Of a stretch of 64,000 nt of DNA, positions 44,815-63,273 are shown piece by piece. The notes under the pieces were generated by a model. It ran no database searches. It had not been told where the DNA came from and saw only the letters and a list, made by a program, of their open reading frames with translations. The position numbers and the translations under genes were made by a program. Source of the DNA: Alphaproteobacteria bacterium (lineage in GTDB: Bacteria; Pseudomonadota; Alphaproteobacteria; Puniceispirillales; UBA1172); contig JADHOM010000001.1 of NCBI GenBank assembly GCA_016778985.1, forward strand, positions 173,613-237,612, in the 5' to 3' direction. Position 1 is the stretch's first letter. Each line of letters begins with the position of its first letter.

Positions 44815-44846
44815 GAAGGTGATTTCCTTTCTCTAATTCACTCTTA

Positions 44847-45653: not shown

Positions 45654-46039
45654 GCGGATAAAGGGCGGTATGCGACGACTTCAACTTCAACCCGAACATC
45701 GACCAAAAGCTCACTGATAACGGCAGATCGGGCAGGTGGGTCTTGAGGAAAATAGTCAGCATAGACGCTATCGAAACCCGGGAAATCAGCGCGCTCCCGC
45801 AGCCATACCATAGATTTGACAACATCAGATAGAGAGCAATCAGCAAGCGCCAGCGTGGCTTTTATCGCCTCCAGAACAACTTGCGTTTGCTGCTCTATTG
45901 TGCCTTCGGTCATGACCACCCCATCTTGCATTGGTATCTGCCCGGTTAAATAGACAAAATCTCCGGCTCTGATCGCCCGTGATAATGACAAGGTTCGGCC
46001 ATTAATGACCAAAGGATCACCGATAACAGTTTTCATCAT
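45650..46039 (-). CDS. ridA: RidA/YjgF family reactive-intermediate (enamine/imine) deaminase
   Basis: The 129-aa protein has typical YjgF blocks (GDFVYLTGQIP, PARSAV...EVEVVA). Confidence 0.85.
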   Translation of the reverse strand: MMKTVIGDPLVINGRTLSLSRAIRAGDFVYLTGQIPMQDGVVMTEGTIEQQTQVVLEAIKATLALADCSLSDVVKSMVWLRERADFPGFDSVYADYFPQDPPARSAVISELLVDVRVEVEVVAYRPLSA

Positions 46040-46106: not shown

Positions 46107-46121
46107 ATTTTTTCGCCAAAA
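46107..46121. promoter_or_regulatory. Motif ATTTTTTCGCCAAAA in the ridA/ALDH divergent spacer (shared with 51965 and 59304)
   Basis: Read directly. The 10-mer TTTTTCGCCA is identical to the one at 51967-51976. Confidence 0.3.
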
Positions 46122-46220: not shown

Positions 46221-47705
46221 ATGGCAGATCAGAAAACCTATCAGATGCTGATTGATGGAGCGTGGGTAGATGCCAGCGATGGGAAGACGTTTCCTAGCAT
46301 TAACCCAACCACTGAACAGCCATGGTGCCATATTCCGGAGGCGACCGAAAGTGATGTCAATCAAGCGGTTGAGGCCGCGCATCGCGCCTTTAGTGAAGGC
46401 GCCTGGGCCAGGATGACGCCAACTGATCGTGGCCGCCATTTGCGGCGGTTAGCCGAATTGCTTAGTGAAAAATCAGAAGAATTAGGGCGCACAGAAACCA
46501 TTGATACGGGCAAAATGCTCAAAGAAACCCGTTGGCAGGCAAAGTATATTGCTGAGTTTTTCCATTTTTATGCCGGCTGCGCGGATAAGGTTCATGGCGA
46601 AACTCTGCCCATTGATAAACCAGACATGATGACCATGACATTTCGTGAGCCACTTGGTGTGGTGGCGGCGGTGGTGCCATGGAATTCACAATTATTTCTG
46701 GTCGCGGTCAAGATTGGCCCGGCATTGGCGGCTGGCAATACGGTGGTGCTGAAAGCATCTGAACATGCTTCTGCCGCTATGCTTGAGTTTGGCAGGCTGA
46801 TTGAGCAGGCAGGCTTCCCGCCGGGGGTGGTTAACATTATAACTGGCCATGCTGATCCTTGTGGTAAGGTGCTGACCTCGCATCCCTTGGTGGCACGAAT
46901 TAGCTTTACAGGCGGTACTGGTGCGGCTCGCCATGTGGTCCGGAACTCGGCTGAAAACTTTGCCGAAGTCTCACTTGAGCTAGGCGGCAAATCGCCATTT
47001 ATTGTCTTTGATGATGCCAATATTGAAAGCGCGGTTAACGGCTCTATCGCTGGTATTTTTGGGGCTAGTGGACAAAGCTGTGTGGCTGGCTCACGGCTAT
47101 ATTTGCATAATCGCATTGCTGATCAGTTTCTCGATAAGATGCTTGATCAGGTCAACCAGATTAGGATCGGTGACCCATTAGAAGACGCTACCCAAATGGG
47201 GCCTTTGGCAACAATGGATCAGATTAATCATATTGAAAATCAGGTCAAAATTGCAAAAGCCGAAGGTGCCGATATTCTGACGGGTGGCAAGCGACCATCG
47301 ACACCTAACCAAGGCTGGTTTTATGAGCCAACAATTATTTCTTGCCCTGATCAAAACTTGACGATTGTTGATACGGAATTGTTTGGCCCTGTCCTTAGCG
47401 TCATGCGTTTTGATGATGAGGCTGAGGTTTTGCAACGTGCTAATGACAGTAAATATGGTCTGGCGGCAGGCATATTTACGGCCAATCAAGCGCGCGCTAT
47501 GCGGATGACACAATCGGTTAATGCTGGCATTGTTTGGGTCAATACCTATCGCATGGTATCACCGATCGCACCGTTTGGCGGGTTCAAGGATTCAGGCTAT
47601 GGCCGGGAAAGTGGAATGCAGGCGATTTATGATTATACGCGGCCGAAAACGGCATGGATTAATATCTCAGATGATCCTATCACCAATCCATTTGTCATGC
47701 GCTAA
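46221..47705 (+). CDS. NAD(P)-dependent aldehyde dehydrogenase
   Basis: GGAGG lies upstream. ELGGKSP and the catalytic Cys context GQSCVAGSR are present. Size is 494 aa. Confidence 0.92.
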   Translation: MADQKTYQMLIDGAWVDASDGKTFPSINPTTEQPWCHIPEATESDVNQAVEAAHRAFSEGAWARMTPTDRGRHLRRLAELLSEKSEELGRTETIDTGKMLKETRWQAKYIAEFFHFYAGCADKVHGETLPIDKPDMMTMTFREPLGVVAAVVPWNSQLFLVAVKIGPALAAGNTVVLKASEHASAAMLEFGRLIEQAGFPPGVVNIITGHADPCGKVLTSHPLVARISFTGGTGAARHVVRNSAENFAEVSLELGGKSPFIVFDDANIESAVNGSIAGIFGASGQSCVAGSRLYLHNRIADQFLDKMLDQVNQIRIGDPLEDATQMGPLATMDQINHIENQVKIAKAEGADILTGGKRPSTPNQGWFYEPTIISCPDQNLTIVDTELFGPVLSVMRFDDEAEVLQRANDSKYGLAAGIFTANQARAMRMTQSVNAGIVWVNTYRMVSPIAPFGGFKDSGYGRESGMQAIYDYTRPKTAWINISDDPITNPFVMR

Positions 47706-49841: not shown

Positions 49842-51007
49842 GCGCCCAGCGGTCTCAAAATTGACCGTGTAATGATATGCCGCTGTATCTCAGACGTGCC
49901 ATCCCAAATACGTTCTAATCGGGCATCACGCCATAGCCGGTGGATAGGCAGTTCTTCCATCAGCCCCATACCGCCATAGATTTGAACCGTATGATCAGCG
50001 ACGCGGCCAAGCATTTCAGAACAATATAATTTAACCATAGCCGCATCGGCATCTGTCATCACGCCCTGATTGGCTTTCTGGATCGCATCTTTGACCAACA
50101 GATTAGCTGCCCGCATTTCAACAGCCATATCAGCCAGCTTAAATCCGGTGGCTTGGAAGCGGCCAATAGGCTGACCAAATTGTTTGCGATTAGCCGCCCA
50201 GTCACAGGCTAAGTCATACATTCTTTCTGCCTTGCCGCAACAGGTCGCGCCAACCCATATCCGCCCCATGCCGAGCCATTTTCCGGATAGCTCGAGGCCT
50301 TTACCAACTTCACCCAAAACATGGGCATCACTGAGCCTGACATCATTAAAATCGAGCTTGAAATTGAGATAGCCGCGATAGCTGACACAATTATAGCCGA
50401 TATCAATATCAAACCCCTTCATTCCGACATCAACCAAAAACGCGGTGATTTGCGGGCGTTTGGATGTGCTGGTCTCATCATATCCGGTGGCGGCAAAGAC
50501 AATGGCAAAATCAGGCATGACAGGCCCAGATACAAAATGTTTTGTGCCATTGAGTATCCAGTCCTTGCCATCACGTTTGGCAAAGCTCCGCATCGACATA
50601 ATATCCGACCCTGCTTCGGGTTCAGATAAGGCAAATAATTCTCTTTTCTCACCACTGACGCAAGGCATCAGATATTGCTCGCGCTGGTCGCCTTCGGTGG
50701 CTAGCAGAATCTCAGTTGGTCGGGCAATCCATGAATGAAGGGCGTGTGTAGTTTTGCCAAACTCTTGTTCAATCAGGGCCATTTGCTCATAATCAAGACC
50801 GCCGCCACCAATCTCAACAGGCAAATTAGCGGCAAATAATCCTACTTCTTTGGATCTTTCCTCAATCTGCCGGCCTAGTTCAATTGGAACCGCGCCATCA
50901 CGATCAACCTGATCTTCATAAGGGAATATTTCTTCTGCCATGAAGCGGCGAACACTTTCGGTCAAAAGTTCGTTTTCATGGCTTCCTTGATTATATTGAT
51001 CTGGCAT
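49838..51007 (-). CDS. Acyl-CoA dehydrogenase
   Basis: The preferred start is ATG at 51007 (MPDQYNQ...), preceded by GGAGG. ACAD blocks are present, including the C-terminal IWDGTSEIQRHII. Confidence 0.9.
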   Translation of the reverse strand: MPDQYNQGSHENELLTESVRRFMAEEIFPYEDQVDRDGAVPIELGRQIEERSKEVGLFAANLPVEIGGGGLDYEQMALIEQEFGKTTHALHSWIARPTEILLATEGDQREQYLMPCVSGEKRELFALSEPEAGSDIMSMRSFAKRDGKDWILNGTKHFVSGPVMPDFAIVFAATGYDETSTSKRPQITAFLVDVGMKGFDIDIGYNCVSYRGYLNFKLDFNDVRLSDAHVLGEVGKGLELSGKWLGMGRIWVGATCCGKAERMYDLACDWAANRKQFGQPIGRFQATGFKLADMAVEMRAANLLVKDAIQKANQGVMTDADAAMVKLYCSEMLGRVADHTVQIYGGMGLMEELPIHRLWRDARLERIWDGTSEIQRHIITRSILRPLGA

Positions 51008-51018
51008 TAAAACCTCCA

Positions 51019-51906
51019 TCAAGATTGTTTTTTAAGTCCAAGTTTTTGTCTGGCTTCTTCGGCAGTAAGAACACGCGCTCCCATGCGTTCAATAATCTCA
51101 CGGGCACGTTCTACCAGCTGAGCATTTGTCGCCAGCACGCCTTTTTCCAGATAGATATTATCCTCAAGCCCAACCCGAACATTGCCGCCCATAGCAACCG
51201 CGGCGGCGGCCATCGGCATTTGCATTCGCGATATCCCAAAAGATGCCCATGATGCATTCGCAGGAAGCTCATCTTTCATGACTTTCATCGTATCAACAGA
51301 TTGATCGGCGCCCCACGGAATGCCCATGCAAATTTGGAACATTGGCGGCTCATCAATCAGCCCCTCGGCAATCATCTGCTTAGCAAAACGGATATGACCT
51401 AGCTCAAACACTTCCAGTTCAGGCTTGACACCTAATTCCTGCACCATAGCCGCCATCTTGCGCAAATAGGCAGGCGTGGAAATATAAATCTCATTGCCAT
51501 TACCAAAGTTCATGGTGCCGCAATCAAGACTACAAATCTCTGGTTTAAGAGCCGTCACATGAGCCAGCCTTTGTTCGGCGTGGATCATATCGGTGCCGGG
51601 GCCAGGCATTGCTGGATTAGTCTCATCAGGAACCCAATCACCACCCATACCAGCGGTTAGGTTAATCACAACATCAGTATCACTAGACCGCACTTTATCA
51701 ACAACCTGACGGAATAGCTCGACATCCCGTGATCCTTTGCCAGTCGCTGGATCACGAACATGGATATGTGCCGCGGTTGCGCCAGCCTTTGCTGCCTCGA
51801 TTGAGGCTTTGGCAATTTCATCAGGCGTCACCGGAACATGCTCGCTTCTGCCTGTTGTATCACCTGCCCCGGTAACAGCGCAGGTTAAGATAACATCCAT
51901 ATTCAT
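51019..51906 (-). CDS. Beta-keto acid cleavage enzyme (BKACE/DUF849; 3-keto-5-aminohexanoate cleavage family), candidate dehydrocarnitine cleavage enzyme
   Basis: The N-terminus ([11 protein letters not shown]...[29 protein letters not shown]) is typical of DUF849 TIM-barrel enzymes. Confidence 0.85.
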
Positions 51907-51964: not shown

Positions 51965-51997
51965 AATTTTTCGCCATAATATTTTCTTTTTCGATAG
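51965..51997. promoter_or_regulatory. Paired motif AATTTTTCGCCATAA-N6-CTTTTTCGATAG between the BKACE operon and the AraC/GlxA-type regulator gene
   Basis: Read directly. The TCG cores are 20 bp apart. The same two-part arrangement occurs at 59304-59337. Confidence 0.35.
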
Positions 51998-52020: not shown

Positions 52021-53061
52021 ATGTCTGAACACCCATTTTCAAAAGCCGCTGATGAAAAACTGATTTGCGTAGTCTTACCGCGGTTTAATATGAACAGCCT
52101 GACGATGCTGATTGAACCCTTGCGGATTGCTAATTATATCTCTGACAAGCCGCTTTATGAATGGCAATTTCTGACCCCCGGCGGCGGTAAAATAACCGCT
52201 AGTAATGGCATGGCCGTAGAATGTGATGATTTGAGGGACATCCCGCATACGGCAACCATTATCCTGTTTGGCAGTTGGGGGGCAGAACGTAATACCGATC
52301 ATCATCTGATTAGCTGGCTGCGGCAATCGGCGCGCCATGGCATCCGTCTGATAGGGGTGGAAACAGGCGCTTATATTCTGGCACGGGCAGGATTGCTCTA
52401 TGGCAAACAAGCCACAACGCATTGGTCGCTTTATCCCGGATTTTCCGAAACCTTTTCGGATATTGAGCCGTCAGAACAGCTTTACACCATAGATAAGCAG
52501 ATCATGACCTGCGCTGGCGGCACGGCGACTGCTGATCTGATGCTCCATCTCATGCAAGGCCAGCATAGTCCTGATCTGGCGAGCGAGGTATCAAGCCAGA
52601 TGTTGCACCAAAGCATCCGCGCGCCCGAAACCTTACAGCGGCCAATTGTTAATACCGGATCAGGCCATATTAACCCCATTATCCTGGAGGTTACGCGGTT
52701 CCTTGAACGCCATATCGAAGATCATATCCCGATCCCTGATCTGTGTCGGCGAACAGGCGTGCCACAACGAAAATTGGAACGGTTATTTCGGCGTGATTTG
52801 GGATGTACCGTGGTGCAGTTTTATCGCCAGTTAAAATTACAATATGCACGCACTTTATTGGTCAGCACGAATATGAATATTCGCGAAATATCGGTCGCCT
52901 GTGGATTTAATTCGATGTCTTATTTCTCACATTGTTTCAGCAGGACTTTTGGCCGCAAGCCGAGTCTTTATCGAATGTCATGGCCAGATGATCAGCCTGA
53001 GCCTATCTGGCATGGCACGATCTATAGCTTTATCAAGAAACCCGAAAAAGATATCGCCTAA
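52021..53061 (+). CDS. AraC-family regulator with N-terminal DJ-1/PfpI (GATase1-like) domain (GlxA/CdhR/GbdR type)
   Basis: The N-domain resembles class-I amidotransferase (VVLPRFNMNSL..., GAYILARAGLL). The C-terminal dual HTH includes ...ISVACGFNSMSYFSHCFSRTFGRKPSLYR. Confidence 0.88.
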   Translation: MSEHPFSKAADEKLICVVLPRFNMNSLTMLIEPLRIANYISDKPLYEWQFLTPGGGKITASNGMAVECDDLRDIPHTATIILFGSWGAERNTDHHLISWLRQSARHGIRLIGVETGAYILARAGLLYGKQATTHWSLYPGFSETFSDIEPSEQLYTIDKQIMTCAGGTATADLMLHLMQGQHSPDLASEVSSQMLHQSIRAPETLQRPIVNTGSGHINPIILEVTRFLERHIEDHIPIPDLCRRTGVPQRKLERLFRRDLGCTVVQFYRQLKLQYARTLLVSTNMNIREISVACGFNSMSYFSHCFSRTFGRKPSLYRMSWPDDQPEPIWHGTIYSFIKKPEKDIA

Positions 53062-53070
53062 AGTGGGGAA

Positions 53071-54015
53071 TTAGAGCGGGTCATTGGCGGCTTTCAGAAT
53101 GGCAACAATGCGCCGATCACGGTCTGCCGCCATATCTTCAAAATGTTTGCCCGCAGCCATGGCATTACAGCCATCAACCATAGCATTACGTAACTCCGGC
53201 GTCAGCTCAGGCGCCTCCAGACGTGTCCAAGGCAGCTTCAAGGCCGGGCCAAACTGATCTAAATTAGTCGCCATACCGCCAGCCCCGCAAGCGACATGAA
53301 AGGCCATACACTGCCCTTGAACGGCCATCCGTGGGGCAGGGCCAAAACGTAAGGCGCGGTCAATATCTTCGGGTGATGCCTCGCCATTGGCAACCATGTG
53401 CAAGGCTTCGCGCCACAGCGCTTCTTGCAGACGTGTTGCAATAAATCCTGGAATTTCTTTTTTCAAACGGATCGGTTCTTTACCAGCAACAGCATAGAAT
53501 GCCATCACCCAATCTAGCGCCTCATCAGCGGTTTTGTCGCCACCAATAACCTCAACAAGCGGCAACAGATAGGGCGGATTAAAGGGATGCCCGACAACAC
53601 AGCGGTCAGGCGTGCTGGATTTGACCTGAATATCGGTCATTGGCAGGCCTGATGTGCTTGATGCGATAACAACCTCAGGCGCTGTGATGCGGCCAAGGGT
53701 TTCATAAAGGTCTTTCTTGATCGGTAATCGTTCGGGCGCACTTTCTTGAATAAACTGGGCGTCTTTAACGGCGGCTGATAAATCATCGGTAATGACTAGC
53801 CGATCCAGACTAGCCGCCGGTGCCAAACCTAGATCAATCAGGCATGGCCATGCGGTATTGACCACCGACATGAATATGGCTTCTTCGTCCTTATGATGCA
53901 AATAGGCGGTGACGTCATAGCCACGTGCCAGAAAATGTGCCGCCCAGCCGGCACCGATAGGGCCCGCCCCAATACTCGTAACATGTTTGACCTGATCACT
54001 GGCTATGCGCATCAT
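53071..54015 (-). CDS. 3-hydroxyacyl-CoA dehydrogenase family protein, L-carnitine dehydrogenase-like
   Basis: The Rossmann N-terminus GAGPIGAGWAAHFLARGYDV matches my memory of carnitine dehydrogenases. Size is about 314 aa. The start overlaps the stop of the upstream hydratase gene. Confidence 0.7.
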   Translation of the reverse strand: MMRIASDQVKHVTSIGAGPIGAGWAAHFLARGYDVTAYLHHKDEEAIFMSVVNTAWPCLIDLGLAPAASLDRLVITDDLSAAVKDAQFIQESAPERLPIKKDLYETLGRITAPEVVIASSTSGLPMTDIQVKSSTPDRCVVGHPFNPPYLLPLVEVIGGDKTADEALDWVMAFYAVAGKEPIRLKKEIPGFIATRLQEALWREALHMVANGEASPEDIDRALRFGPAPRMAVQGQCMAFHVACGAGGMATNLDQFGPALKLPWTRLEAPELTPELRNAMVDGCNAMAAGKHFEDMAADRDRRIVAILKAANDPL

Positions 54016-54818
54016 TATTTTCCTTTGAAAACCGGCTCTCTTTTTTCAACAAAGGCTTTAATCCCCTCTGCCGCGTCTTCTGATGTAAGCATCGACCGGT
54101 ATGTTGGTAGATCATCCTCACGCATGGCTGAAAATGATTTCTGCATCGGCTGACATTCAATATGGCGTAAGACTTCTTTGACAGATTGCATGGCAAGTGG
54201 TGCCGCCCAAGCCAGTCGTTCTGCCCAATCCATCGCTTCGGTCATCAGATCAGCATGCGCAACAACTTTATTGATAAGGCCATAATGTGCGGCTTCATCT
54301 GCTTTCATACGGCGACCAAGCAGCAACATTTCCATCGCAATATTATAAGGGATACGCCGTGGCAGACGTTGGATAGCGCCAGCATCAGGAATTATTCCCA
54401 ATGGCATTTCAGGCAAAGCAAACTCAACATGCTCACTAGCAATCAACAGATCACAGGCAAGCGCAATCTCAAAACCGCCGCCAATGACTAATCCGTTTAA
54501 TGCCCCGATGACAGGTTTATTGAGTGACCAGTTTTCGGTTAATCCGGCAAAGCCGCCATCCCCATAATCACCATCATTCCACCATTCATCTAGCTTCGCC
54601 TCGCCGCTATTCAGCGATTTCAGATCCCAGCCTGCAGAAAAGATGCGGTCGCCTTCCGCGGTGATAATGCCAACGCGCAAATCATGTTCATCACGTAATC
54701 TGGCAAAGGCGGCACCCAGTGCGCGGCTCATTTCATGGTCAATGGCATTGACTTTAGGTTTATTCAAGGTCACGACCAGAACATGGCCGTGAGTTTCTAC
54801 GCGGACGCTATCTGACAT
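54015..54818 (-). CDS. Crotonase-fold enoyl-CoA hydratase, CaiD-like (carnitinyl-CoA dehydratase / crotonobetainyl-CoA hydratase type)
   Basis: The block LNKPKVNAIDHEMSRALGAAFARLRDEHDLRVGIITAEGDRIFSAGWDLK closely parallels the E. coli CaiD N-terminal region as I remember it (RPKANAID...FSAGWDLK). Confidence 0.8.
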   Translation of the reverse strand: MSDSVRVETHGHVLVVTLNKPKVNAIDHEMSRALGAAFARLRDEHDLRVGIITAEGDRIFSAGWDLKSLNSGEAKLDEWWNDGDYGDGGFAGLTENWSLNKPVIGALNGLVIGGGFEIALACDLLIASEHVEFALPEMPLGIIPDAGAIQRLPRRIPYNIAMEMLLLGRRMKADEAAHYGLINKVVAHADLMTEAMDWAERLAWAAPLAMQSVKEVLRHIECQPMQKSFSAMREDDLPTYRSMLTSEDAAEGIKAFVEKREPVFKGK

Positions 54819-54830
54819 GGTTTTATCCTT

Positions 54831-56138
54831 TTAGATATCTAGAGTATTGTCTTTTTCCCACTGGCTGAAATGTGATGCATAGGCATTCCATTCTTGATGC
54901 TTGAGCTTGAGATAGGCGGCGGCAAAATCATTGCCAATAGCCGCTTTAAGCCCCTTGTCACGGTCAAATGCCCGCAACGCATCCAACATATTTAACGGTA
55001 ATTTCGGGGCACCCCTAACCTTATATCCTTCGGCGTACATATCAATATCATAACGTTTGCCGGGGTCAGCTTTATGAGCTAGCCCATCGAGACCTGCCGC
55101 CATAATAACCGCCTGTAACAGATAGGGATTAGCGGCGCCATCAGGTAGTCGTAATTCAAATCGGCCAGGCCCCGGAACCCGCACCATATGGGTGCGGTTA
55201 TTGCCTGTCCATGTCACCGTATTAGGCGCCCATGTTGCGCCTGATGTGGTGCGCGGGGCATTAATCCGCTTATAGCTGTTAACTGTTGGATTGGTAATTG
55301 CCGCCATAGCAGTAGCATGGCGCATAATACCGCCGAGGAAATGTCGGCCATCTTGGGATAAGCCAAGCTCCATCGCGTCATCGGCAAACATATTTGTGTT
55401 GCCCGATTTATCCCAGACAGAGACATGAACATGACAGCCATTACCCGTCAGACCCTCGATAGGCTTAGGCATGAAAGTCGCTCGATAACCATGTTTTTCA
55501 GCGACTGATTTTGTCATAAACTTGAAAAAGGAATGTTTGTCTGCGGTGCGCAAGACATCATCAAACTGCCAATTCATTTCAAACTGGCCATTGGCATCTT
55601 CGTGGTCATTCTGATAGGGCTTCCAGCCCAGCTCCAGCATGTAATCACATATCTCAGCAATAACATCATAGCGTCGCATAACCGCTTGCTGATCATAGCA
55701 TGGCTTCTCGGCGGTATCGAAATGATCAGAAATCTGATCACCTGCGGGCGTCAGCAGAAAGAACTCCGCCTCAACACCAGACTTGATATAATAGCCTTGG
55801 GCTTCGGCACGATTAATCATGGCTTTTAAGACATTGCGCGGGGCTTGCATGACGGTTTCATCTTCCATGATGCAATCGGCGGCTACCCACGCGACGTCTT
55901 TTTTCCAGGGCAGTTGTATCACTGATGAGGCATCAGGAACCGCCAACATATCAGCATGGGCAGGCGTTAAATCAAGCCATGACGCAAATCCAGCAAAGCC
56001 AGCACCATCGGTTTGCATATCAGCAATAGCTTGTGTCGGGACAAGCTTGGCGCGTTGATATCCAAACAAGTCTGTATAGGATATCATAAAATATTTAATA
56101 CCGTTTTTCTTTCCATATTCTGCTAGATCAATAGCCAT
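54831..56138 (-). CDS. glnT: Type III glutamine-synthetase-like ligase (GlnT / gamma-glutamylmethylamide synthetase-like)
   Basis: The 435-aa protein has GS catalytic-domain blocks (GNGCHVHVSVW, NSYKRI). It lies directly downstream of three GltB-fragment genes. Confidence 0.85.
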   Translation of the reverse strand: MAIDLAEYGKKNGIKYFMISYTDLFGYQRAKLVPTQAIADMQTDGAGFAGFASWLDLTPAHADMLAVPDASSVIQLPWKKDVAWVAADCIMEDETVMQAPRNVLKAMINRAEAQGYYIKSGVEAEFFLLTPAGDQISDHFDTAEKPCYDQQAVMRRYDVIAEICDYMLELGWKPYQNDHEDANGQFEMNWQFDDVLRTADKHSFFKFMTKSVAEKHGYRATFMPKPIEGLTGNGCHVHVSVWDKSGNTNMFADDAMELGLSQDGRHFLGGIMRHATAMAAITNPTVNSYKRINAPRTTSGATWAPNTVTWTGNNRTHMVRVPGPGRFELRLPDGAANPYLLQAVIMAAGLDGLAHKADPGKRYDIDMYAEGYKVRGAPKLPLNMLDALRAFDRDKGLKAAIGNDFAAAYLKLKHQEWNAYASHFSQWEKDNTLDI

Positions 56139-56180
56139 CTGTCTTCTCCCCTCAGTCGATAGTCTTGTATGCCCCTAATC

Positions 56181-57521
56181 TTATATTCCCTTGCCGGGTA
56201 TCCAATCGGTGCCAGCTAGCGGCACTCTTGCCATCGCCGCCGCCTCAATGGTCAACGCGCAAAGGTCTTCGGGCTCCAGATTATGAACGTGACTTTTGCC
56301 ACATGCGCGGGCAATCGTCTGCGCCTCTAAAGTCATTACTTTGAGATAATTTGCCAGCCGCTTACCAGCAAGTAAAGGATCAAGCCGCGCCGCCAGTTCC
56401 GGGTCTTGGGTGGTGATGCCTGCTGGATCACGGCCTTCATGCCAGTCATCATAGGCGCCTGCGGTTGTCCCCAGTTTTTGATATTCCGCTTCCCATTTCG
56501 GGTCATTATCACCCATAGCAATCAATGCTGCCGTCCCGATAGACACCGCATCTGCACCTAATGCTAAGGCTTTGGCAACATCGGCGCCATTGCGGATACC
56601 ACCCGATACAATCAGTTGTACTTTGCGGTGCATGCCCAGCTCTTGCAGAGCCTGAACGGCAGGACGGATACAAGCTAATGTCGGGATGCCAACATGCTCA
56701 ATAAAGACATCTTGAGTTGCCGCGGTACCGCCTTGCATACCATCAAGGACAACAACATCAGCCCCCGCCTTGACGGCAAGAGCAGTGTCAAAATACGGCC
56801 GCGCCCCGCCAACCTTGATATAGATTGGCTTTTCCCAGCCAGTAATCTCACGAAGCTCAAGAATCTTAATTTCCAGATCATCAGGCCCTGTCCAGTCAGG
56901 ATGCCGACAGGCCGAGCGTTGATCAATACCAGCAGGAAGATCACGCATATCAGCAACCCGGTCACTGATTTTCTGGCCAAGCAGCATACCGCCTCCGCCA
57001 GGCTTTGCGCCTTGCCCAACAACAACCTCAATCGCATCAGCGCGGCGCAGATCATCAGGGTTCATGCCATAACGTGATGGTAAATATTGATACACCAGCT
57101 TATTAGAATGGCCGCGTTCTTCTTCGGTCATGCCGCCATCACCTGTGGTTGTTGATGTGCCAGCGGCGGTCGCTCCGCGCCCTAAGCCCTCTTTCGCGGC
57201 TCCTGATAAAGCCCCAAAGCTCATCCCTGCGATGGTGATCGGGATATCAAGCTCTATTGGATTTTTGGCAAAGCGCGTGCCTAGAGTGACGTTAGTTGCA
57301 CATTTTTCCCGATAGCCTTCAAGCGGATAGCGCGAAATAGAGGCACCTAAAAATAATAGATCATCAAAATGCGGAACACGGCGTTTCGCCCCACCACCAC
57401 GGATATCATAAATGCCCGTATCGGCGGCACGCCGGATCTCGGCATTGACCGCTTTCGTAAATGTGGCTGATTGAACAGGTTCGGTTTGCGATTTTGAATG
57501 GGTTTTTTTCGCTTCGGTCAT
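56181..57521 (-). CDS. FMN-binding glutamate-synthase-domain protein (GlxD / MgsC-like)
   Basis: The preferred start is ATG at 57521 (MTEAKK...), preceded by GAGGA. The longer ORF would overlap the upstream gene. A GltS FMN-domain block is present (GAKPGGGG...). Confidence 0.8.
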   Translation of the reverse strand: MTEAKKTHSKSQTEPVQSATFTKAVNAEIRRAADTGIYDIRGGGAKRRVPHFDDLLFLGASISRYPLEGYREKCATNVTLGTRFAKNPIELDIPITIAGMSFGALSGAAKEGLGRGATAAGTSTTTGDGGMTEEERGHSNKLVYQYLPSRYGMNPDDLRRADAIEVVVGQGAKPGGGGMLLGQKISDRVADMRDLPAGIDQRSACRHPDWTGPDDLEIKILELREITGWEKPIYIKVGGARPYFDTALAVKAGADVVVLDGMQGGTAATQDVFIEHVGIPTLACIRPAVQALQELGMHRKVQLIVSGGIRNGADVAKALALGADAVSIGTAALIAMGDNDPKWEAEYQKLGTTAGAYDDWHEGRDPAGITTQDPELAARLDPLLAGKRLANYLKVMTLEAQTIARACGKSHVHNLEPEDLCALTIEAAAMARVPLAGTDWIPGKGI

Positions 57522-57528
57522 AATATCC

Positions 57529-58242
57529 TCAATAGGCTGAAACATTATCAACATCAAAATGATAGAGCTGGCGGGCTGAGCCATAGCGGCGAAAGCTTGC
57601 CGGATCAGCATCCATATCAGCCCGTTCAAGCAGCTCTGCTAGCTGCTTGATATGTTCCTCTTTCATGTCTTTTTCAATGCAATCGGCACCGAGACTTTTG
57701 ACTGAGCCGCGAACATATAGACGCGCTTCATATAGCGAATCCCCTAACGCTTCACCAGCATCACCAAGCACCACCAGATTACCTTTCTGTGCCATAAAAG
57801 CCGACATATGGCCAATATTTCCGGCAACAATAATATCAATCCCCTTCATCGAGATGCCGCAACGTGAGGCGGCATTACCGCGAATGACAAGGGTGCCGCC
57901 ATGACCAGTTGCTCCCGCATATTGACTGGCATCACCCTCAACCACTACCATGCCTGAGGTCATGTTTTCAGCAACCCCAGGGCCAACAGAGCCATTTACC
58001 GTGATCGTCGCCTGCTTATTCATGCCGCCACAATAATATCCGGTCGAGCCATTAACCGTCACCCGGATAGGTGCGTCTAACCCAACCGCAATCGCATGGC
58101 TGCCACGCGGATTTATGATAGTCCAGTCTTGCTGGTTCGTGCCTGCGGATTGCTGTTGTAAGGTCTCATTCAGATAGCGCAATCCTTGTTCGGTCAAATC
58201 TATGGTCGTCATATCTTGTGATGTTATATCTAGTGTTGTCAT
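57529..58242 (-). CDS. GXGXG-motif protein (glutamate synthase alpha-subunit C-terminal domain; GlxC / MgsB-like)
   Basis: It has repeated beta-helix GxGxG-type segments (VNGSTGYYCGGMN, VNGSVGPGVAE, VEGDASQYAGA, IRGNAASRCG). Confidence 0.8.
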   Translation of the reverse strand: MTTLDITSQDMTTIDLTEQGLRYLNETLQQQSAGTNQQDWTIINPRGSHAIAVGLDAPIRVTVNGSTGYYCGGMNKQATITVNGSVGPGVAENMTSGMVVVEGDASQYAGATGHGGTLVIRGNAASRCGISMKGIDIIVAGNIGHMSAFMAQKGNLVVLGDAGEALGDSLYEARLYVRGSVKSLGADCIEKDMKEEHIKQLAELLERADMDADPASFRRYGSARQLYHFDVDNVSAY

Positions 58243-59148
58243 TTAGTGGCTCCAGAAATAGACTTCTGCTGGTTCAGGTTCCCACACTTTGGCTGCCTCA
58301 ATCGCTGGCAAATTGACCAATGCCCGATATTCAGACCCAAAGGCAACATAGGCATCGGTTTCTGCCATGACAGCAGGTTTGCAAGCAATCGGGTCACGCA
58401 AGACGCCAAACCCGGTTTTTGTTCCAACAACAAAGGTGAAAAACCCATCCAGATCATTGAGACCAGACGTTAATGCCTCACCTAGGGTTTGCCCTTCGCT
58501 CATCCGTGCGGTTAAATAGGCGGCAGCGACTTCGCTATCGTTTTCGGTCTGAATATCAATGCCCTCAGCGCGCAGATGGCGGCGCATCATATTATGATTT
58601 GATAATGACCCATTATGGACAAGGCACTGATCTTGGCCGGTGGAAAATGGATGCGCGCCGAGCGTTGTAATCGCCGACTCGGTTGCCATTCTTGTATGCC
58701 CAATCCCATGACTGCCAGAGGCGTCGGTCAGGCCAAATCGCTGTACCACATCTTTGGGCAGGCCGACTTCTTTATAAATCTCAATAGATTGGCCTTGGCT
58801 CATAATACGGATAGTGGGAAACTGGCTCTTTATAATGCTAAGGATTATATCCTTATCCGTCTCCATCACCTGTATGACAGCATGAGTATCGCGAGCGGTG
58901 ATACTAAAAGCCTTGCTATTGAGATTAGCATGATCATGGAGATGTTGCTCAAGGGCGGGAAAATCAACATCGGGCTGCCCCGACTGAATGGTCAGTTTCC
59001 ACATGCCTTTAGACTCATCCCCATAGATGGCAATTCCGGCGCTATCCGGCCCCCGATCAGTCATCGTTATTAACATTGCACTTAGCATTTCACCAAGCTC
59101 AGGTTTTAATGCTTCATCCTTTAAGAAAAGTCCAACAATGCCACACAT
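58243..59148 (-). CDS. Class-II (Ntn) glutamine amidotransferase-domain protein (GlxB / MgsA-like)
   Basis: The preferred start at 59148 gives MCGIVG..., with the catalytic Cys directly after Met. AGGA lies 8 nt upstream. Confidence 0.8.
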   Translation of the reverse strand: MCGIVGLFLKDEALKPELGEMLSAMLITMTDRGPDSAGIAIYGDESKGMWKLTIQSGQPDVDFPALEQHLHDHANLNSKAFSITARDTHAVIQVMETDKDIILSIIKSQFPTIRIMSQGQSIEIYKEVGLPKDVVQRFGLTDASGSHGIGHTRMATESAITTLGAHPFSTGQDQCLVHNGSLSNHNMMRRHLRAEGIDIQTENDSEVAAAYLTARMSEGQTLGEALTSGLNDLDGFFTFVVGTKTGFGVLRDPIACKPAVMAETDAYVAFGSEYRALVNLPAIEAAKVWEPEPAEVYFWSH

Positions 59149-59303
59149 GTATTTGTCCTGTATGTATTCACTAATTTGCATCTGCCACATTTGCTAACAT
59201 GGCTGGATGGATAAATTGATATGATTTCCAATACCGATTTTGACGACTCATCTTGATCAGTAATATAGATTATAGCTTCGCCTAGTTTATATCATCAGAT
59301 ATA

Positions 59304-59337
59304 AATTTTTCGACAAAAAATGACATTTTCGATATTT
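59304..59337. promoter_or_regulatory. Paired motif AATTTTTCGACAAAA-N4-ACATTTTCGATATTT upstream of the glxB/mgsA-like operon
   Basis: Read directly. The TCG cores are 19 bp apart. It lies 156-189 bp upstream of the ATG at 59148. Confidence 0.35.
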
Positions 59338-59340
59338 CTG

Positions 59341-60954
59341 TTACTGGCATAACCAATCATCATTTTCACAAATATGAATAAGCGTGGGTCTGTCTGCTGC
59401 TAATGCCGCTTTCAGGCCAGTGGTAAATTGATCCGCGTCTTTGGGCGCGATAAAATGACAATGACATGCCTTTGCCAGCAATTCAAAATCAGGGTTTATC
59501 CCTTCAACCCCAATCCGTGAAATTTGCCGTGCATCCATATCATCTCTGATCTGCTTATAGCCGCCATTATCCCAAATAATCATCGGGATCGGCATGTGAT
59601 GCTCGGCGGCAACCAGTAATTCGGGCATGGTGAACATAAATCCGCCATCACCTGCGATGGCGATAACATCATGATCTGGCTTTGCCATTTTAGCGCCAAT
59701 CGCATTTGGCAAGGCATTGCCAAGCGCACAATAGCCGGCCGGGAAAAACCATGATCTTGGGGCGCGTGACGGGATGGCAAATGTTCCCGTATAGGCAATC
59801 TGGCAAGCATCATTTGACATAATGGTGTGATCAGACAAACACGCCCGCATCAATGTCAGCAAACGGGCATGTTGTTTTTCAGAGGCATTTAGCTTTGCTG
59901 TTATCGCGGCTTTGGTTGAGGCAATGATGGTTTTATTCTGTGTGCTGATCTGCTCACTATGTCCGGCAATAGCATCTTTGAGCGCGCGCATAGCAATAGC
60001 GGCATCAGAGACAATGCCGATATCGGCAGGAAACTGATCACTGATCTTTAATGGATCAATATCAACGCGAATGATTTGACCCGGAATATGGAGCGGCCCC
60101 GCAAAACTATCGGTTTCTGCAAGTTCGGTTCCGACCGCCAGCACAACATCGGCTTTGGCGATAATATCATGACCATCAGCCGTCACCACCCCCGCCGATA
60201 ATGATAGCGGATGATCATCGGCAACAATGCCCTTGCCGGCGGTTGATGTCGTCACAATCGCGCCCAGTGTTTCCACAATAGCGCGAATATCAGCAGCCGC
60301 ATCTGCGGCACCACCGCCAACCATGATGAGCGGGTTTTTGGCATCAGTTAGCAGCTTTGCGGCTTGCCTGATCATATCAGGCTGGCAAGCTGGACGTGGC
60401 GGTAGCGCAATAGGCTCCCACAACTCATCAACTGGCATGGCCTGAACATCAATAGGGATGGAAATATGACATGGCCGCGGCCGTTCACTGGCAAAATGGG
60501 AAAATGCTCTAGCCATTAAATCAGGAATATCGGATGGCCGCATCGCTGTTGCCGAAAATGCGGTTATTGGTTCTGTTACTTTTTTCTGTTCAGTAATTTC
60601 ATGCAAGACGCCCCAACCTTTGCCGAGAGTATCTGATGGGGGTTCTGCCGAGATCAGCAACATTGGCAAGCTTTCGGCATAGCATTGTGCTAGGGCAGTC
60701 GTGGCATTAGTCACGCCAGGGCCAGAGATGACAATAGCCACCCCAACCTCACCAGTAGCGCGCGCCCAGCCTTCAGCCATAAAGCCTGCTCCAAGTTCAT
60801 GCCGTGCCTGAATATGCTGAACAGCACCAGCGTTGCCGCCGCCGGTTAAACCTCTGCACATATCCAATGTATGAACACCGGGGATACCAAAGACATGGGT
60901 AACCCCATAACGTGACAACAACCGTATCGTGGCTTCTCCGCATGTCATAGTCAT
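59341..60954 (-). CDS. Thiamine-diphosphate-dependent enzyme (acetolactate synthase / 2-oxoacid decarboxylase superfamily)
   Basis: The preferred start is ATG at 60954 (MTMTCGEATIRLLSRYGVTHVFGIPGVHT), preceded by AAGGA. The ThDP motif GDGGFMF...NN/DNGGY is present. The N-terminus resembles remembered 5-guanidino-2-oxopentanoate decarboxylase-like proteins. Confidence 0.85.
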   Translation of the reverse strand: MTMTCGEATIRLLSRYGVTHVFGIPGVHTLDMCRGLTGGGNAGAVQHIQARHELGAGFMAEGWARATGEVGVAIVISGPGVTNATTALAQCYAESLPMLLISAEPPSDTLGKGWGVLHEITEQKKVTEPITAFSATAMRPSDIPDLMARAFSHFASERPRPCHISIPIDVQAMPVDELWEPIALPPRPACQPDMIRQAAKLLTDAKNPLIMVGGGAADAAADIRAIVETLGAIVTTSTAGKGIVADDHPLSLSAGVVTADGHDIIAKADVVLAVGTELAETDSFAGPLHIPGQIIRVDIDPLKISDQFPADIGIVSDAAIAMRALKDAIAGHSEQISTQNKTIIASTKAAITAKLNASEKQHARLLTLMRACLSDHTIMSNDACQIAYTGTFAIPSRAPRSWFFPAGYCALGNALPNAIGAKMAKPDHDVIAIAGDGGFMFTMPELLVAAEHHMPIPMIIWDNGGYKQIRDDMDARQISRIGVEGINPDFELLAKACHCHFIAPKDADQFTTGLKAALAADRPTLIHICENDDWLCQ

Positions 60955-61065
60955 AATATTCATCCTTATATGTATAGTATTATATTCATATGGCATACTT
61001 AGCGCATATGGATGTAATGATGTTACGTTGAAGCAATCGGTTTGACCATAATAATTATGCTTTAA

Positions 61066-61102
61066 TGATCATGAATGAACATCTCATATTGATCATGAAT
61101 GA
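61066..61102. repeat. Two perfect 13-bp direct repeats TGATCATGAATGA (61066-61078 and 61090-61102)
   Basis: Read directly. The second copy covers the stop codon of the DMT gene. They lie in the spacer before the TPP-enzyme gene. Confidence 0.6.
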
Positions 61103-62034
61103 TCGGGGCTGTTCTGATCAGATGAGGTTGCTAGCCAGATGGCAAATATCATGAGCGACAATACAATCAGCATCCACCAAGGATGAGTTTCACCAAAAAA
61201 CACCATGCCAAAGCCAACACCTGCAATCAGCGAGATGAAGCCAGCCAGGCTGACAAAAATCGGGCCGCCTTTATCAATGAGATAGAAATACAGATAAATA
61301 GAAATAGCACTCAAGATAACATATCCCATCATCACCAACCATAAACCGGTTTCTATAATTGGCGTTGGGTCAAACCCATAAATCAGGAAAGTGATCGGCA
61401 TGATGGTGAAAAAACCAACCATGGCCTCACCGCTTGCTAATTGCCAGCCATCCTCGCCTGTCGGCCAGAACTTTGAAATTACATTGTGGTAGATGCCATA
61501 GCATAGCGGCACCAGACAAGCGATGATCAGCCCTATCACAGCCATTTCAGGAACAGGGATAGACAGGTTTTCGCCCAGTAAAATTGGCATCATGGCTATA
61601 CTGGCAAGGATAATACCTATGACTTTACGGCGGCTAAGCACGTCGGTTTTCATCAGAAAAGCAAAAATCATAGTAACGATGGGCGAAATTGAAACAACAA
61701 TGGTGAGTAGCCCGGCACCAATCAAGGGCGCAGAATAAAGCTCTAATACGGCGGGAATCATATATCCCAAAATACCGGCGACCAGATAAAAGATTAAGCT
61801 GGCTGGCCTAAACAAACGCGGATACCGCCCGCGTATCATGCAGATCATGCCAAAGATCGGAATTTCAGCAAGCAAAGCAAAACTTAGGATCACCATAGGC
61901 TCAATCCCGGTTTCACCAGCAATCCGCGATAAAGAGAAAAATAGACCCCATGTCAGGCCAAGCACAATTAGTCCAAGAATGGCATAATTAGAGATTTGTT
62001 TTGGCACCATCGCCGTTTGATCAGGCTGTTCCAT
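61093..62034 (-). CDS. DMT (EamA-like) family transporter
   Basis: About 10 TM segments with two EamA-like halves. The start is ambiguous: TTG at 62046, ATG at 62034 or ATG at 62010. Confidence 0.78.
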   Translation of the reverse strand: MEQPDQTAMVPKQISNYAILGLIVLGLTWGLFFSLSRIAGETGIEPMVILSFALLAEIPIFGMICMIRGRYPRLFRPASLIFYLVAGILGYMIPAVLELYSAPLIGAGLLTIVVSISPIVTMIFAFLMKTDVLSRRKVIGIILASIAMMPILLGENLSIPVPEMAVIGLIIACLVPLCYGIYHNVISKFWPTGEDGWQLASGEAMVGFFTIMPITFLIYGFDPTPIIETGLWLVMMGYVILSAISIYLYFYLIDKGGPIFVSLAGFISLIAGVGFGMVFFGETHPWWMLIVLSLMIFAIWLATSSDQNSPDHS

Positions 62035-62046
62035 AAGCGCGATCAA

Positions 62047-63273
62047 TCACAGAATATCATCAAGCGCGGCGATAGCCTGATTGATCTCATCAGGGCTTGT
62101 ATAATGAACAAAAGACAGCCGGACAGCGCCATCTTCTGGGGATATCCCCATTGTCTCCAATAAACGCACAGCATAAAAATCACCTACTCCAGCCATAATT
62201 TTGCGGTCAGCTAGTTGCCGTCCGATCTCTTGTGAGCTTAGCCGTGATGAAACAAAGCTAACGGTTGGTGCCCGCCTAGTTGGATCATTTGGGCCGAGCA
62301 AACGCAGATCATTGCGGTTGCTCAGATAATCCAGAAGCATCTTAAGATTGCTGCGTTCAGCCATATGGAAAAGGCTTTCGAGGCGCCGTGGCCGCATCGC
62401 ATCATCGCTGCCGCCATGATGCTTATCCAGCGCATCAAAATAATCTAGCATACCGTTCATAGCGGCTATCTGAACATGATCAGGGCCTGCCGGGATCATC
62501 CATTTTGATGGCACATCACGATTAAAATAATGACTTTGCGGCTCAAGCACAGAAGTGGCAGATTTGCGCACCACCATCACCCCCTGATGTGGGCCATAAG
62601 TTTTATAGCTGGAAAACAGATAGATATCTGCCCCCAGCGCATCAACATCTGGCAGGCCATGGGGGCAATAGGACACCCCATCAACAAGCAAGATAGCATT
62701 GGCAGCATGAACAATATCTGCAATCTCTCGCACTGGATTAATATCAGCCACGAGGTTCGAGCAATGGGTCATAGCAACCATAGTAATGCGGTCATCTAAT
62801 AATTGCGTCAGATCATCCAAATCAAGTTCACCAGTATCGGCATTAACTTCCCAGATAAGAACCCGCATCCCACTTGCCTCAAGTCGTCGCCAAACACCGG
62901 CATTAGCCTCATGCTCTTGTCCTGATACGATAATGCCGTCACCTGCGGTCATGCGCGCCAATAATGCCTGTGCCAGTACATAAGTATTTTGTGATGTTGA
63001 TGGGCCAAACATAACTTCATCAGCGCCAACATTAAGATAGCGCGCCATGCGTTCATGAGCTTGATCCATTTCCATGCCAAGATCAGCCGATGCCTTAAAG
63101 GCATAATAGGGCTGTAACTTGCGCTGGTGAAAAATCGTTGTGAAGCGATCAATGACCTGCCGGCACATATATGAGCCGCCGGCATTTTCAAAAAAAGCCT
63201 GCCCATCTAAGCTTGCTTCTGAAAAAGCAGGAAATTGTTGCCTGACAAAATTAAGGTCTAAGGTCGTTGTCAT
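62047..63273 (-). CDS. Class-V aminotransferase-fold PLP enzyme (cysteine-desulfurase-like family)
   Basis: The N-terminus (VRQQFPAF...FFENAGGSYMCRQV) and the PLP-Lys region (FSSYKTYGPHQG) are present. Size is 408 aa. Confidence 0.85.
   Translation of the reverse strand: MTTTLDLNFVRQQFPAFSEASLDGQAFFENAGGSYMCRQVIDRFTTIFHQRKLQPYYAFKASADLGMEMDQAHERMARYLNVGADEVMFGPSTSQNTYVLAQALLARMTAGDGIIVSGQEHEANAGVWRRLEASGMRVLIWEVNADTGELDLDDLTQLLDDRITMVAMTHCSNLVADINPVREIADIVHAANAILLVDGVSYCPHGLPDVDALGADIYLFSSYKTYGPHQGVMVVRKSATSVLEPQSHYFNRDVPSKWMIPAGPDHVQIAAMNGMLDYFDALDKHHGGSDDAMRPRRLESLFHMAERSNLKMLLDYLSNRNDLRLLGPNDPTRRAPTVSFVSSRLSSQEIGRQLADRKIMAGVGDFYAVRLLETMGISPEDGAVRLSFVHYTSPDEINQAIAALDDIL

Follow-up and report, generated by a model that had tools for sequence, protein, structure and literature searches.

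We analyzed a 64,000-nt stretch of DNA (the window), part of contig C10 of a 2.1-Mb genome (98.6% complete) whose closest relatives are SAR116/Puniceispirillales metagenome-assembled genomes. In six consecutive minus-strand genes, mgsABC and gmaS of the N-methylglutamate pathway run directly into two genes of a carnitine-type module, a caiD-like and a cdh-like gene. We favor, with slightly better than even confidence, the explanation that this block is a chimeric operon, specific to one genus, that was assembled from two ordinary, independently conserved gene sets and in which the methylamine genes have undergone regulatory capture. What is new would be the wiring and the operon arrangement, with the enzymes probably keeping their usual chemistry. 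The gmaS gene is a marker for methylamine use in the ocean and is carried by about a fifth of surface bacteria.

The six genes, in the order mgsA, mgsB, mgsC, gmaS, caiD-like and cdh-like (Table 1), are separated by spacers of 0, 7, 42, 12, and −1 nt. A previous sequence-only reading of this DNA had reported this order and these spacers, and our re-reading of the open reading frames (ORFs) matched it exactly; the gene types that it named were borne out by the Pfam and NCBIfam profile models with which we assigned all families. It had placed the block at 54015-59148, and the cdh-like gene (53071-54015) falls just beyond the start of that range. Within mgsA, the start MCGIVG, 14 codons inside the longest ORF, gives an N-terminal nucleophile cysteine (Cys1). 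MgsA, MgsB, and MgsC are three separate subunits encoded beside gmaS, and each carries the expected domain. The 12-nt spacer between gmaS and caiD contains only an AAGGA ribosome-binding site, which leaves no room for a terminator plus a promoter. Consensus scans found no more promoter-like or terminator-like sites than expected by chance, every such site fell within coding sequence, and no operator-like half-site was present in the last 470 nt of gmaS. From this layout, it is plausible that the six genes form one transcription unit.

By homology, mgsABC and gmaS are canonical N-methylglutamate-pathway genes. GmaS, encoded by a single copy in the genome, scored 658.1 bits against TIGR03105 (cutoff, 469.6), which places it in the type III glutamine synthetase (GS)/GlnT family. 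Its best match in the PDB was GmaS from Rhodovulum (7CQL; E = 1.7e-181; ~70% identity, estimated by eye), followed by the glutamate-methylamine ligase 9QUR (1.8e-95), whereas the best glutamine synthetase reached 2.7e-69; both methylamine ligases thus outranked every GS as structure matches. In an alignment to 7CQL, using the residues listed in the GmaS structure paper (PMC7948447), the proposed methylamine pocket (Y147, Q175, D177, E179, E186, N188, and K30′) was kept, as were catalytic D177, E186, and R312 and the GmaS-specific A48′ and W300, which replace the ammonium-binding Asp50′ and the flap Glu of GS. A scan of species-representative genomes yielded 80 loci with GmaS 77 to 89% identical, from Rhodobacterales, Rhizobiales (Mesorhizobium and Rhizobium), and other SAR116 genomes, including 78% identity to Ruegeria relatives of the model methylamine user R. 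pomeroyi. The order mgsA-mgsB-mgsC-gmaS was kept in every one of the 80 loci long enough to show it. Identity to gmaS-adjacent copies was 62 to 90% for mgsA (more than 80 loci), and across syntenic loci it was 62 to 98% for mgsB and 84 to 98% for mgsC (84 to 92% relative to the canonical mgsC copies at the 80 GmaS loci). The role predicted for GmaS is the ATP-dependent ligation of methylamine to glutamate, giving gamma-glutamylmethylamide that MgsABC would convert to N-methylglutamate. According to one alternative in the sequence-only reading, the GS-like/GltB-like set acts on some other amine tied to acyl-CoA chemistry, a reading to which the unusual neighbors and unusual promoter lend some color. 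However, GmaS is a close orthologue of validated enzymes, with all seven proposed pocket residues and the catalytic residues unchanged, and the ranking of structure matches, the single gmaS copy, and the identity of MgsC to canonical copies point the same way. We therefore regard a different amine as very improbable.

The sequence-only reading had seen no mgdABCD genes, which encode the third step of the pathway. This holds for the window, where we found none, but not for the genome, which contains an orthologue at C27:52146-57247. Two soxBDAG-like operons are present (C9:41382-46758 and C27:52146-57247), and contigs C9 and C27 hold the only two SoxD-family matches genome-wide. Where both paralogues could be compared (30 loci for one subunit and 31 for the other, in 30 to 31 genomes), the mgs-linked mgd copies of other genomes were 71% (B subunit) and 55% (A subunit) identical to C27, versus 55% and 46% to C9. 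Because mgs-linked copies are closer to C27 than to C9, the C27 operon is, by synteny and identity, the mgd orthologue; with the third step, MgdABCD, assigned to C27 in this way, the N-methylglutamate pathway is complete in the genome, and retention of mgd is a further point against a different amine. The C9 operon adjoins a dimethylglycine-dehydrogenase-like gene and a 515-amino-acid (aa) gene and presumably encodes sarcosine oxidase. The expectation that mgd normally sits beside mgs and gmaS did not hold as a rule: a soxBDAG-like operon lay within 10 kb of mgsABC-gmaS at 33 of the 80 related loci and was absent from that distance at 47. As to the source of methylamine, the genome had no FMO-like match that could represent an FMO-type Tmm and no Tdm of the DUF1989-GCV_T type, its only DUF1989 protein being 216 aa long. 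Formation of methylamine from trimethylamine (TMA) or TMA N-oxide (TMAO) was rejected on these grounds. Since Tmm and Tdm are missing while gmaS, mgsABC, and mgd are kept, the known route should allow the cell to use methylamine but neither TMA nor TMAO.

To place the fusion in context, orthologous regions from 19 SAR116 genomes were compared. The gmaS gene abuts caiD only in the genus of the window, with spacers of ~12 to 33 nt, and caiD or cdh was found within 10 kb of gmaS at 0 of 79 loci outside the genus. Nine of the 11 genomes of the genus (our own and eight relatives) have the fusion intact, a tenth (G004) has it with split genes, and the eleventh (G007) lacks both gene sets. In G004 (75% complete, 4% contamination; locus L137), mgsC, caiD, cdh, the upstream gene for a thiamine diphosphate (ThDP) enzyme, and others appear split by stops or frameshifts, reflecting either pseudogenization of the block or a poor assembly. 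Elsewhere, caiD-cdh keep company with genes for a BKACE enzyme, an acyl-CoA dehydrogenase (ACAD), a CoA ligase, and a regulator but not with mgs, as seen in G011, G015, G039, G120, genus g6, and 12 genomes of other alphaproteobacterial families. For example, caiD, cdh, and BKACE are contiguous in g6, and an aldehyde dehydrogenase (ALDH) gene, the regulator, caiD, cdh, BKACE, ACAD, and the ligase lie on one strand in G039 (g13). The cdh homologues in the 12 other-family genomes are 50 to 65% identical, and most are flanked by some of BKACE, caiD, ACAD, and ligase; in none of the 12 were canonical mgs-gmaS genes beside cdh.

The distance between the two sets in related genera is 4 kb, 25 to 28 kb (g20), or about 0.5 Mb (0.54 Mb in the complete genome G011 of genus g2). 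The 4-kb case is G021 (genus g4), where an oppositely oriented ABC transporter cassette (L127, 9713-13738) with a substrate-binding protein of the ProX/choline type separates mgsABC-gmaS from caiD-cdh. By gene arrangement, G021 is an intermediate state, and the genus-specific fusion looks derived. Just upstream of caiD, G021 also carries an apparent relic of the 3′ end of a luciferase-like monooxygenase gene, a gene that precedes caiD in G011, G015, and G120, and its locus L127 contains TGTCAAAAA direct repeats 20 nt apart.

Two further loci outside the genus were inspected. At L148 (G400:C1:2273100-2293000), from another alphaproteobacterial family, a cdh homologue (54% identical) stands beside two GS-like paralogues that are 27 to 31% identical to GmaS, so that a GS-like ligase and a carnitine-dehydrogenase-like gene are paired there in a different way. 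In SAR116 family f2 (L156, G031:C3:1-19000; also L155 and L157), mgsABC-gmaS (gmaS 62% identical) are embedded among genes for a GcvT-like aminomethyltransferase, two AMP-forming ligases, an ACAD, two crotonases, malonyl-CoA decarboxylase, a Cys/Met (Met-gamma-lyase-type) pyridoxal phosphate enzyme, and EamA transporters, with the ACAD and crotonase genes 5 kb from gmaS. The f2 locus was rejected as a second recurrence of mgs with acyl-CoA genes because it is not the carnitine-type module; its annotation resembles a dimethylsulfoniopropionate (DMSP) demethylation cluster (dmdABCD-like).

Promoter comparisons make regulation look rewired in this genus, with the usual control of mgsA replaced by the control site of the module. 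A predicted activator operator of two direct repeats lies upstream of mgsA (Table 1; in a longer reading, TATCGAAAA-N11-TGTCGAAAAATTTAT), and a matching one lies upstream of BKACE in the same orientation to its downstream gene (longer reading, TATCGAAAAA-N12-TGGCGAAAAATTGAT). The pattern CGAAAA-N11-15-GNCGAAAAA matched twice in the window, the same count as across the entire 2.1-Mb genome, and never in shuffled sequence. The BKACE copy is conserved in genera g1, g2, g4, g13, and g20. The mgsA copy was found at 8 loci of the genus but at none of the 71 loci from elsewhere. When seven species of the genus were aligned, the dual repeat was the sole conserved block in the otherwise divergent region between the ThDP gene, whose stop codon precedes the operator by a few nucleotides, and mgsA. 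From our reading of the two promoters, the spacing of −10 hexamer and operator appears to be the same at BKACE and mgsA. Only the dual repeat is specific: the proximal half-site alone gave 10 genome matches versus 2 to 11 in shuffles and, not being enriched, was rejected as a predictor of the regulon. A proximal-type half-site also occurs at 46107-46118, in the divergent promoter region of the ALDH and RidA genes.

The control that mgsA has elsewhere is missing from the genus. At other loci, an element of the form GAA[AT]-N6-TTC(C/T/A)...GTTG lies ~80 to 90 nt upstream of mgsA. Together with a GNTANCGT-like −10 sequence, it is conserved across a range that includes Rhizobium, Mesorhizobium, Roseobacters, and SAR116 genus g2 (L010-L088 and L140). 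Outside the genus, 40 of 71 loci carried its strict form (shuffle rate, 0.0007) and most of the others a near-variant; none of the 11 loci of the genus had the element, and it is absent from window positions 59149-59340. A gene for a PuuR-like helix-turn-helix (HTH) regulator (best NCBIfam model, PuuR, below its cutoff) immediately precedes mgsA in G011, G039, and Ruegeria, is the immediate neighbor of gmaS in G036, and adjoins the mgs-gmaS cluster in g2, g12, and g13; none of the 11 genomes of the genus has a homologue. The protein that binds the canonical element could be this PuuR-like regulator or TmaR. Because the element and the PuuR-like regulator are both missing, the genus would need a replacement control. 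The sequence-only reading is thus supported in part: the regulatory integration of the operon with the carnitine-type genes appears to go further than it had seen, to a shared dual repeat and the loss of canonical control.

We weighed these data against neutral juxtaposition, in which genome streamlining simply deleted the DNA between unrelated units, the repeat at mgsA is not a shared operator, and caiD-cdh depend for their expression on either a promoter within gmaS or incidental read-through. Such an origin is consistent with the confinement of direct adjacency to one genus, with the very short intergenic spacers across the 2.1-Mb genome, with the 4-kb cassette in G021, which fits a simple deletion, and with the lack of enrichment of the proximal half-site. 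However, it does not readily accommodate a full dual repeat that is unique to two promoters in 2.1 Mb and conserved alone across seven species, nor the disappearance of the canonical control, and caiD-cdh must still be coexpressed with the BKACE operon. We consider neutral juxtaposition unlikely.

In the regulatory-capture model that we prefer, one transcript would start from a promoter near 59270 and run through all six genes. The regulator encoded at 52021-53061, bound to the repeats beside the weak −35, would activate this transcript, with a betaine-like compound or an amine of the module as the inducer. Because the promoter would be shared and under the module regulator, methylamine assimilation would be switched on along with the breakdown of a carnitine-like omega-amino acid. 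The reason for joint wiring may be regulator economy in a 2.1-Mb genome or a real metabolic link; both are possible.

Several points weigh against regulatory capture. No dual-repeat operator was seen at the C27 mgd operon, so the three steps of the pathway would not be co-regulated. The distal half-site reads CGGAAAA instead of TCGAAAA in five species of the genus, and in two members, G006 and G001, the upstream gene differs and a clear dual repeat is lacking. That the regulator binds the repeats is something we infer from motif similarity, and transcription of the block could also depend on an internal promoter within gmaS or on read-through from the upstream ThDP gene. Finally, the co-occurrence data below suggest more than shared wiring, and a metabolic link may be undervalued if only regulation is considered.

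The nature of the carnitine-type module bears on that link. The best NCBIfam model for the caiD-like protein was crotonobetainyl-CoA hydratase (NF002936), at 292 bits against an equivalog cutoff of 500. Its GGGFE and PEMPLG motifs, which usually bear the two catalytic Glu residues of crotonases, mark it as an ordinary two-Glu crotonase. The cdh-like protein scored best with L-carnitine dehydrogenase (317 bits; cutoff, 414), falls below both carnitine dehydrogenase cutoffs, and has no thioesterase domain, unlike the bifunctional carnitine dehydrogenase. The regulator gene faces cdh across a 9-nt gap in convergent orientation and is transcribed away from BKACE. At 247 bits against a GbdR cutoff of 480, the protein is a member of the family rather than a GbdR equivalog; it is one of two GlxA-type regulators in the genome, the other being a paralogue, and its gene remains linked to the caiD/BKACE module in g2, g4, g13, and g20 as well as in other families. 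The BKACE, ACAD, and CoA ligase genes (47739-51906) are syntenic with caiD-cdh in at least 14 lineages, and the ALDH gene is syntenic with the module in 7. Genes for a RidA-family deaminase, a PcaD/RutD-like alpha/beta-hydrolase, and a DUF1185 protein (44212-46039, minus strand) also travel with the module, RidA in six lineages and the hydrolase in five, including a non-SAR116 genome. The RidA and hydrolase genes suggest that the module pathway includes hydrolysis of an enamine or imine.

A second complete set of BKACE, a 492-aa dehydrogenase, ACAD, an ADP-forming CoA ligase, and CaiD is encoded on one strand at C43:70823-77407, 34 to 57% identical to the window set. Judged by length, its dehydrogenase could hold the typical thioesterase domain; such a long carnitine dehydrogenase was present in 29 of 41 relatives, with or without gmaS. 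The C43 set is more likely than the window set to encode the canonical gamma-butyrobetaine/carnitine route, and it matches the five-enzyme gamma-butyrobetaine-to-glycine-betaine cluster reported for Sinorhizobium meliloti. Because it is a diverged paralogue of this complete set, the window module probably acts on a different, related substrate. Upstream of mgsA, a minus-strand block (59341-63273) encodes the AruI-like ThDP decarboxylase, a DMT/EamA transporter, and a VC1184-type class-V aminotransferase-like protein. The decarboxylase falls in the 5-guanidino-2-oxopentanoate decarboxylase subfamily (NF005712), and the position of its gene is conserved within the genus. The enzymes of this block, along with the ALDH, could convert a cationic amino acid into the shorter omega-amino acid on which the module acts.

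Table 1. Predicted genes and control sites of the methylamine-carnitine-type block and its surroundings in the window
Feature	Position	Strand	Family or sequence evidence
mgsA (glxB), N-terminal nucleophile (Ntn) amidotransferase subunit of N-methylglutamate synthase	58243..59148	minus	GATase_6/7 domains
mgsB (glxC), GXGXG subunit	57529..58242	minus	PF01493
mgsC (glxD), flavin mononucleotide (FMN; GltB-like) subunit	56181..57521	minus	PF01645 Glu_synthase, 287 bits
gmaS (glnT), gamma-glutamylmethylamide synthetase	54831..56138	minus	TIGR03105
caiD-like enoyl-CoA hydratase	54015..54818	minus	ECH_1
cdh-like short (314 aa) 3-hydroxyacyl dehydrogenase	53071..54015	minus	3HCDH_N/3HCDH
Predicted activator operator upstream of mgsA	59304..59334	minus	direct repeats TATCGAAAA-N11-TGTCGAAAAATT
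Candidate −10 hexamer TATAAT	59269..59274	minus	read from sequence; 29 nt downstream of operator proximal repeat, weak −35
Matching predicted operator upstream of BKACE	51965..51995	minus	TATCGAAAAA-N12-TGGCGAAAAATT
GlxA/GbdR/CdhR-type regulator (DJ-1/PfpI + AraC HTH)	52021..53061	plus	PF01965, PF12833 (HTH_18), PF00165 (HTH_AraC)
BKACE	51019-51906	minus	Pfam, NCBIfam
Acyl-CoA dehydrogenase (ACAD)	49838-51022	minus	Pfam, NCBIfam
ADP-forming CoA ligase	47739-49841	minus	Pfam, NCBIfam
Betaine-aldehyde/aminobutyraldehyde-type ALDH	46221..47705	plus	TIGR01804, 509 bits vs cutoff 669
AruI-like ThDP 2-oxoacid decarboxylase	59341..60996	minus	NF005712, 582 bits vs cutoff 500

The link of the module to methylamine genes suggested in the sequence-only reading also gains from strong gene co-occurrence, for which all statistics given here are uncorrected for phylogeny. 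Across 192 genomes of the order, 24 had both a cdh orthologue and gmaS, 2 had the module only, 11 had gmaS only, and 155 had neither; within SAR116, gmaS was thus present in 24 of 26 module genomes versus 11 of 166 without the module (Fisher p = 5e-20). In an even sample of 399 other Alphaproteobacteria, the corresponding numbers were 11 of 12 versus 46 of 387 (p = 2e-9). These 12 module genomes span about nine families, and in them the module and gmaS are more than 100 kb apart or on separate contigs, so the association there is not simply one of physical linkage. As a control, the canonical long carnitine dehydrogenase did not track gmaS among 41 relatives (18/22 versus 11/19; p = 0.17).

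This asymmetry is the first support for a metabolic coupling, a rival to shared wiring alone. Here, the module would degrade an N-methylated (secondary-amine) omega-amino acid or a related compound and release methylamine, for example, by hydrolysis of an N-methyl enamine or imine after acyl-CoA dehydrogenation. GmaS and MgsABC would capture the methylamine and the C27 Mgd would finish the pathway, the fusion and the promoter swap having followed because methylamine is an obligatory product. Candidate substrates include N-methyl-gamma-aminobutyrate and 5-(methylamino)valerate, the latter derived from N-methyl-lysine or N-methyl-ornithine; a candidate route to it would use the upstream aminotransferase, the AruI-like decarboxylase, and the ALDH. 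Divergence of the window module from the C43 set, which makes another substrate probable, fits this coupling. So do the travelling RidA and hydrolase genes with a half-site in their promoter region, given that enamine/imine chemistry is unexpected for quaternary betaines. The decarboxylase, transporter, and aminotransferase genes directly upstream are consistent with it, as is the genome's lack of a TMA- or TMAO-derived methylamine supply. Mechanistic precedent exists in DmdC and DmdD, which free methanethiol via an acyl-CoA dehydrogenase and crotonase mechanism. A precedent for entry into the pathway is homarine breakdown, which joins at N-methylglutamate (PMC13236597).

On the other hand, the characterized five-enzyme route ends in glycine betaine and makes no methylamine, and our literature search found no BKACE-type pathway that yields methylamine. 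The same route bears on the other alternative of the sequence-only reading, in which methylated-amine nitrogen from betaine catabolism passes straight into this operon; the window module, as a diverged paralogue accompanied by RidA/RutD-like genes, may nevertheless differ in its chemistry. The co-occurrence may be confounded by phylogeny or ecology, both gene sets being traits of users of methylated compounds. Joint gain and loss is trivial within the genus and G021, where the loci are adjacent or nearly so, and three genomes (G141, 95% complete; G136; and G197) have the module without gmaS. The f2 locus, with mgs-gmaS in a DMSP-demethylation-like cluster, suggests a general tendency of these genes to sit among methyl-compound genes. 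We therefore hold metabolic coupling to be a tentative explanation, clearly short of even odds. The same doubtful standing applies to its specific form, in which methylamine would be released with the help of the crotonase, RidA, and the RutD-like hydrolase, and GmaS/MgsABC would serve as a nitrogen-recovery arm.

Each outcome carries consequences for how gmaS is read in the ocean. If the regulatory wiring is real, gmaS expression in this genus would report the availability of betaine-like or N-methylated substrates rather than methylamine itself, in a SAR116 genome that appears unable to produce methylamine from TMA or TMAO. A metabolic link would point to a compound and a pathway, both as yet undescribed, that yield methylamine in abundant oligotrophs. 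Methylamine in the surface ocean would then have a new biological source, and the N-methylglutamate pathway would have a second noncanonical entry after homarine, a 2026 finding. In either case, comparison of the related genera traces the stages by which two operons of a streamlined genome were merged and a promoter was exchanged.

Compared with the N-methylglutamate pathway (gmaS, mgsABC, and mgdABCD) known from Ruegeria pomeroyi, Methylocella silvestris, and Rhodovulum sp. 12E13 (PMC5520151, PMC7948447), the system described here is alike in its four proteins, their mgsA-B-C-gmaS order, their high identity, their pocket and catalytic residues, and the presence of mgd in the genome. It differs in that mgd lies on another contig, tmm and tdm are absent from the genome, the canonical promoter element and neighboring PuuR-like regulator are missing, and caiD-like and cdh-like genes follow 12 nt after gmaS. 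In R. pomeroyi, the AraC-family protein TmaR activates the gmaS-mgs and mgd operons (PMC13390433), so methylamine genes elsewhere are also under an activator of this family. The window regulator is 24 to 34% identical to GlxA-like regulators near mgs in Roseobacters and Rhizobium; it belongs by synteny to the carnitine-type module and not to the methylamine cluster.

The module itself resembles a five-enzyme route from gamma-butyrobetaine via L-carnitine to glycine betaine that Bazire et al. reportedly described in S. meliloti in 2019. The two share the families of the ADP-forming CoA ligase, acyl-CoA dehydrogenase, crotonase, carnitine-dehydrogenase-like enzyme, and BKACE. With this route and with the caiX-cdhCAB/CdhR system of Pseudomonas aeruginosa (PMC5806209), the window shares a divergently transcribed GATase-1/AraC regulator and a direct-repeat operator, here a predicted one. 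In contrast to both, the window dehydrogenase is short and lacks the thioesterase, hydratase and dehydrogenase fall under the NCBIfam equivalog cutoffs, and the closer match with a long dehydrogenase sits on C43. The window paralogue also travels with RidA, alpha/beta-hydrolase, and ALDH genes, and its module is split by the regulator gene, with one half fused behind gmaS. In domain architecture, the regulator is like GbdR and CdhR, two GATase-1/AraC regulators, as is SouR. The footprinted CdhR site consists of GGTCGC direct repeats with a 15-bp spacer (PMC5806209). The predicted operator is similarly made of two direct repeats, ~20 bp (two helical turns) apart around CG, but its half-site, (T/G)(T/G)CGAAAA, is AT-rich, unlike the Pseudomonas sites.

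A parallel to a metabolic link is homarine catabolism, in which homABCDER together with mgd feed N-methylglutamate into the pathway (PMC13236597). We rejected a hom operon as the explanation for the block: none was identified next to the block genes, and the hom proteins are of other families (a flavin adenine dinucleotide [FAD] protein, its partner, a peptidase, and an ALDH-like enzyme). The homarine system serves as precedent only, both for a methylated marine osmolyte that reaches the N-methylglutamate node without free methylamine and for mgd genes that are unlinked from gmaS and mgs.

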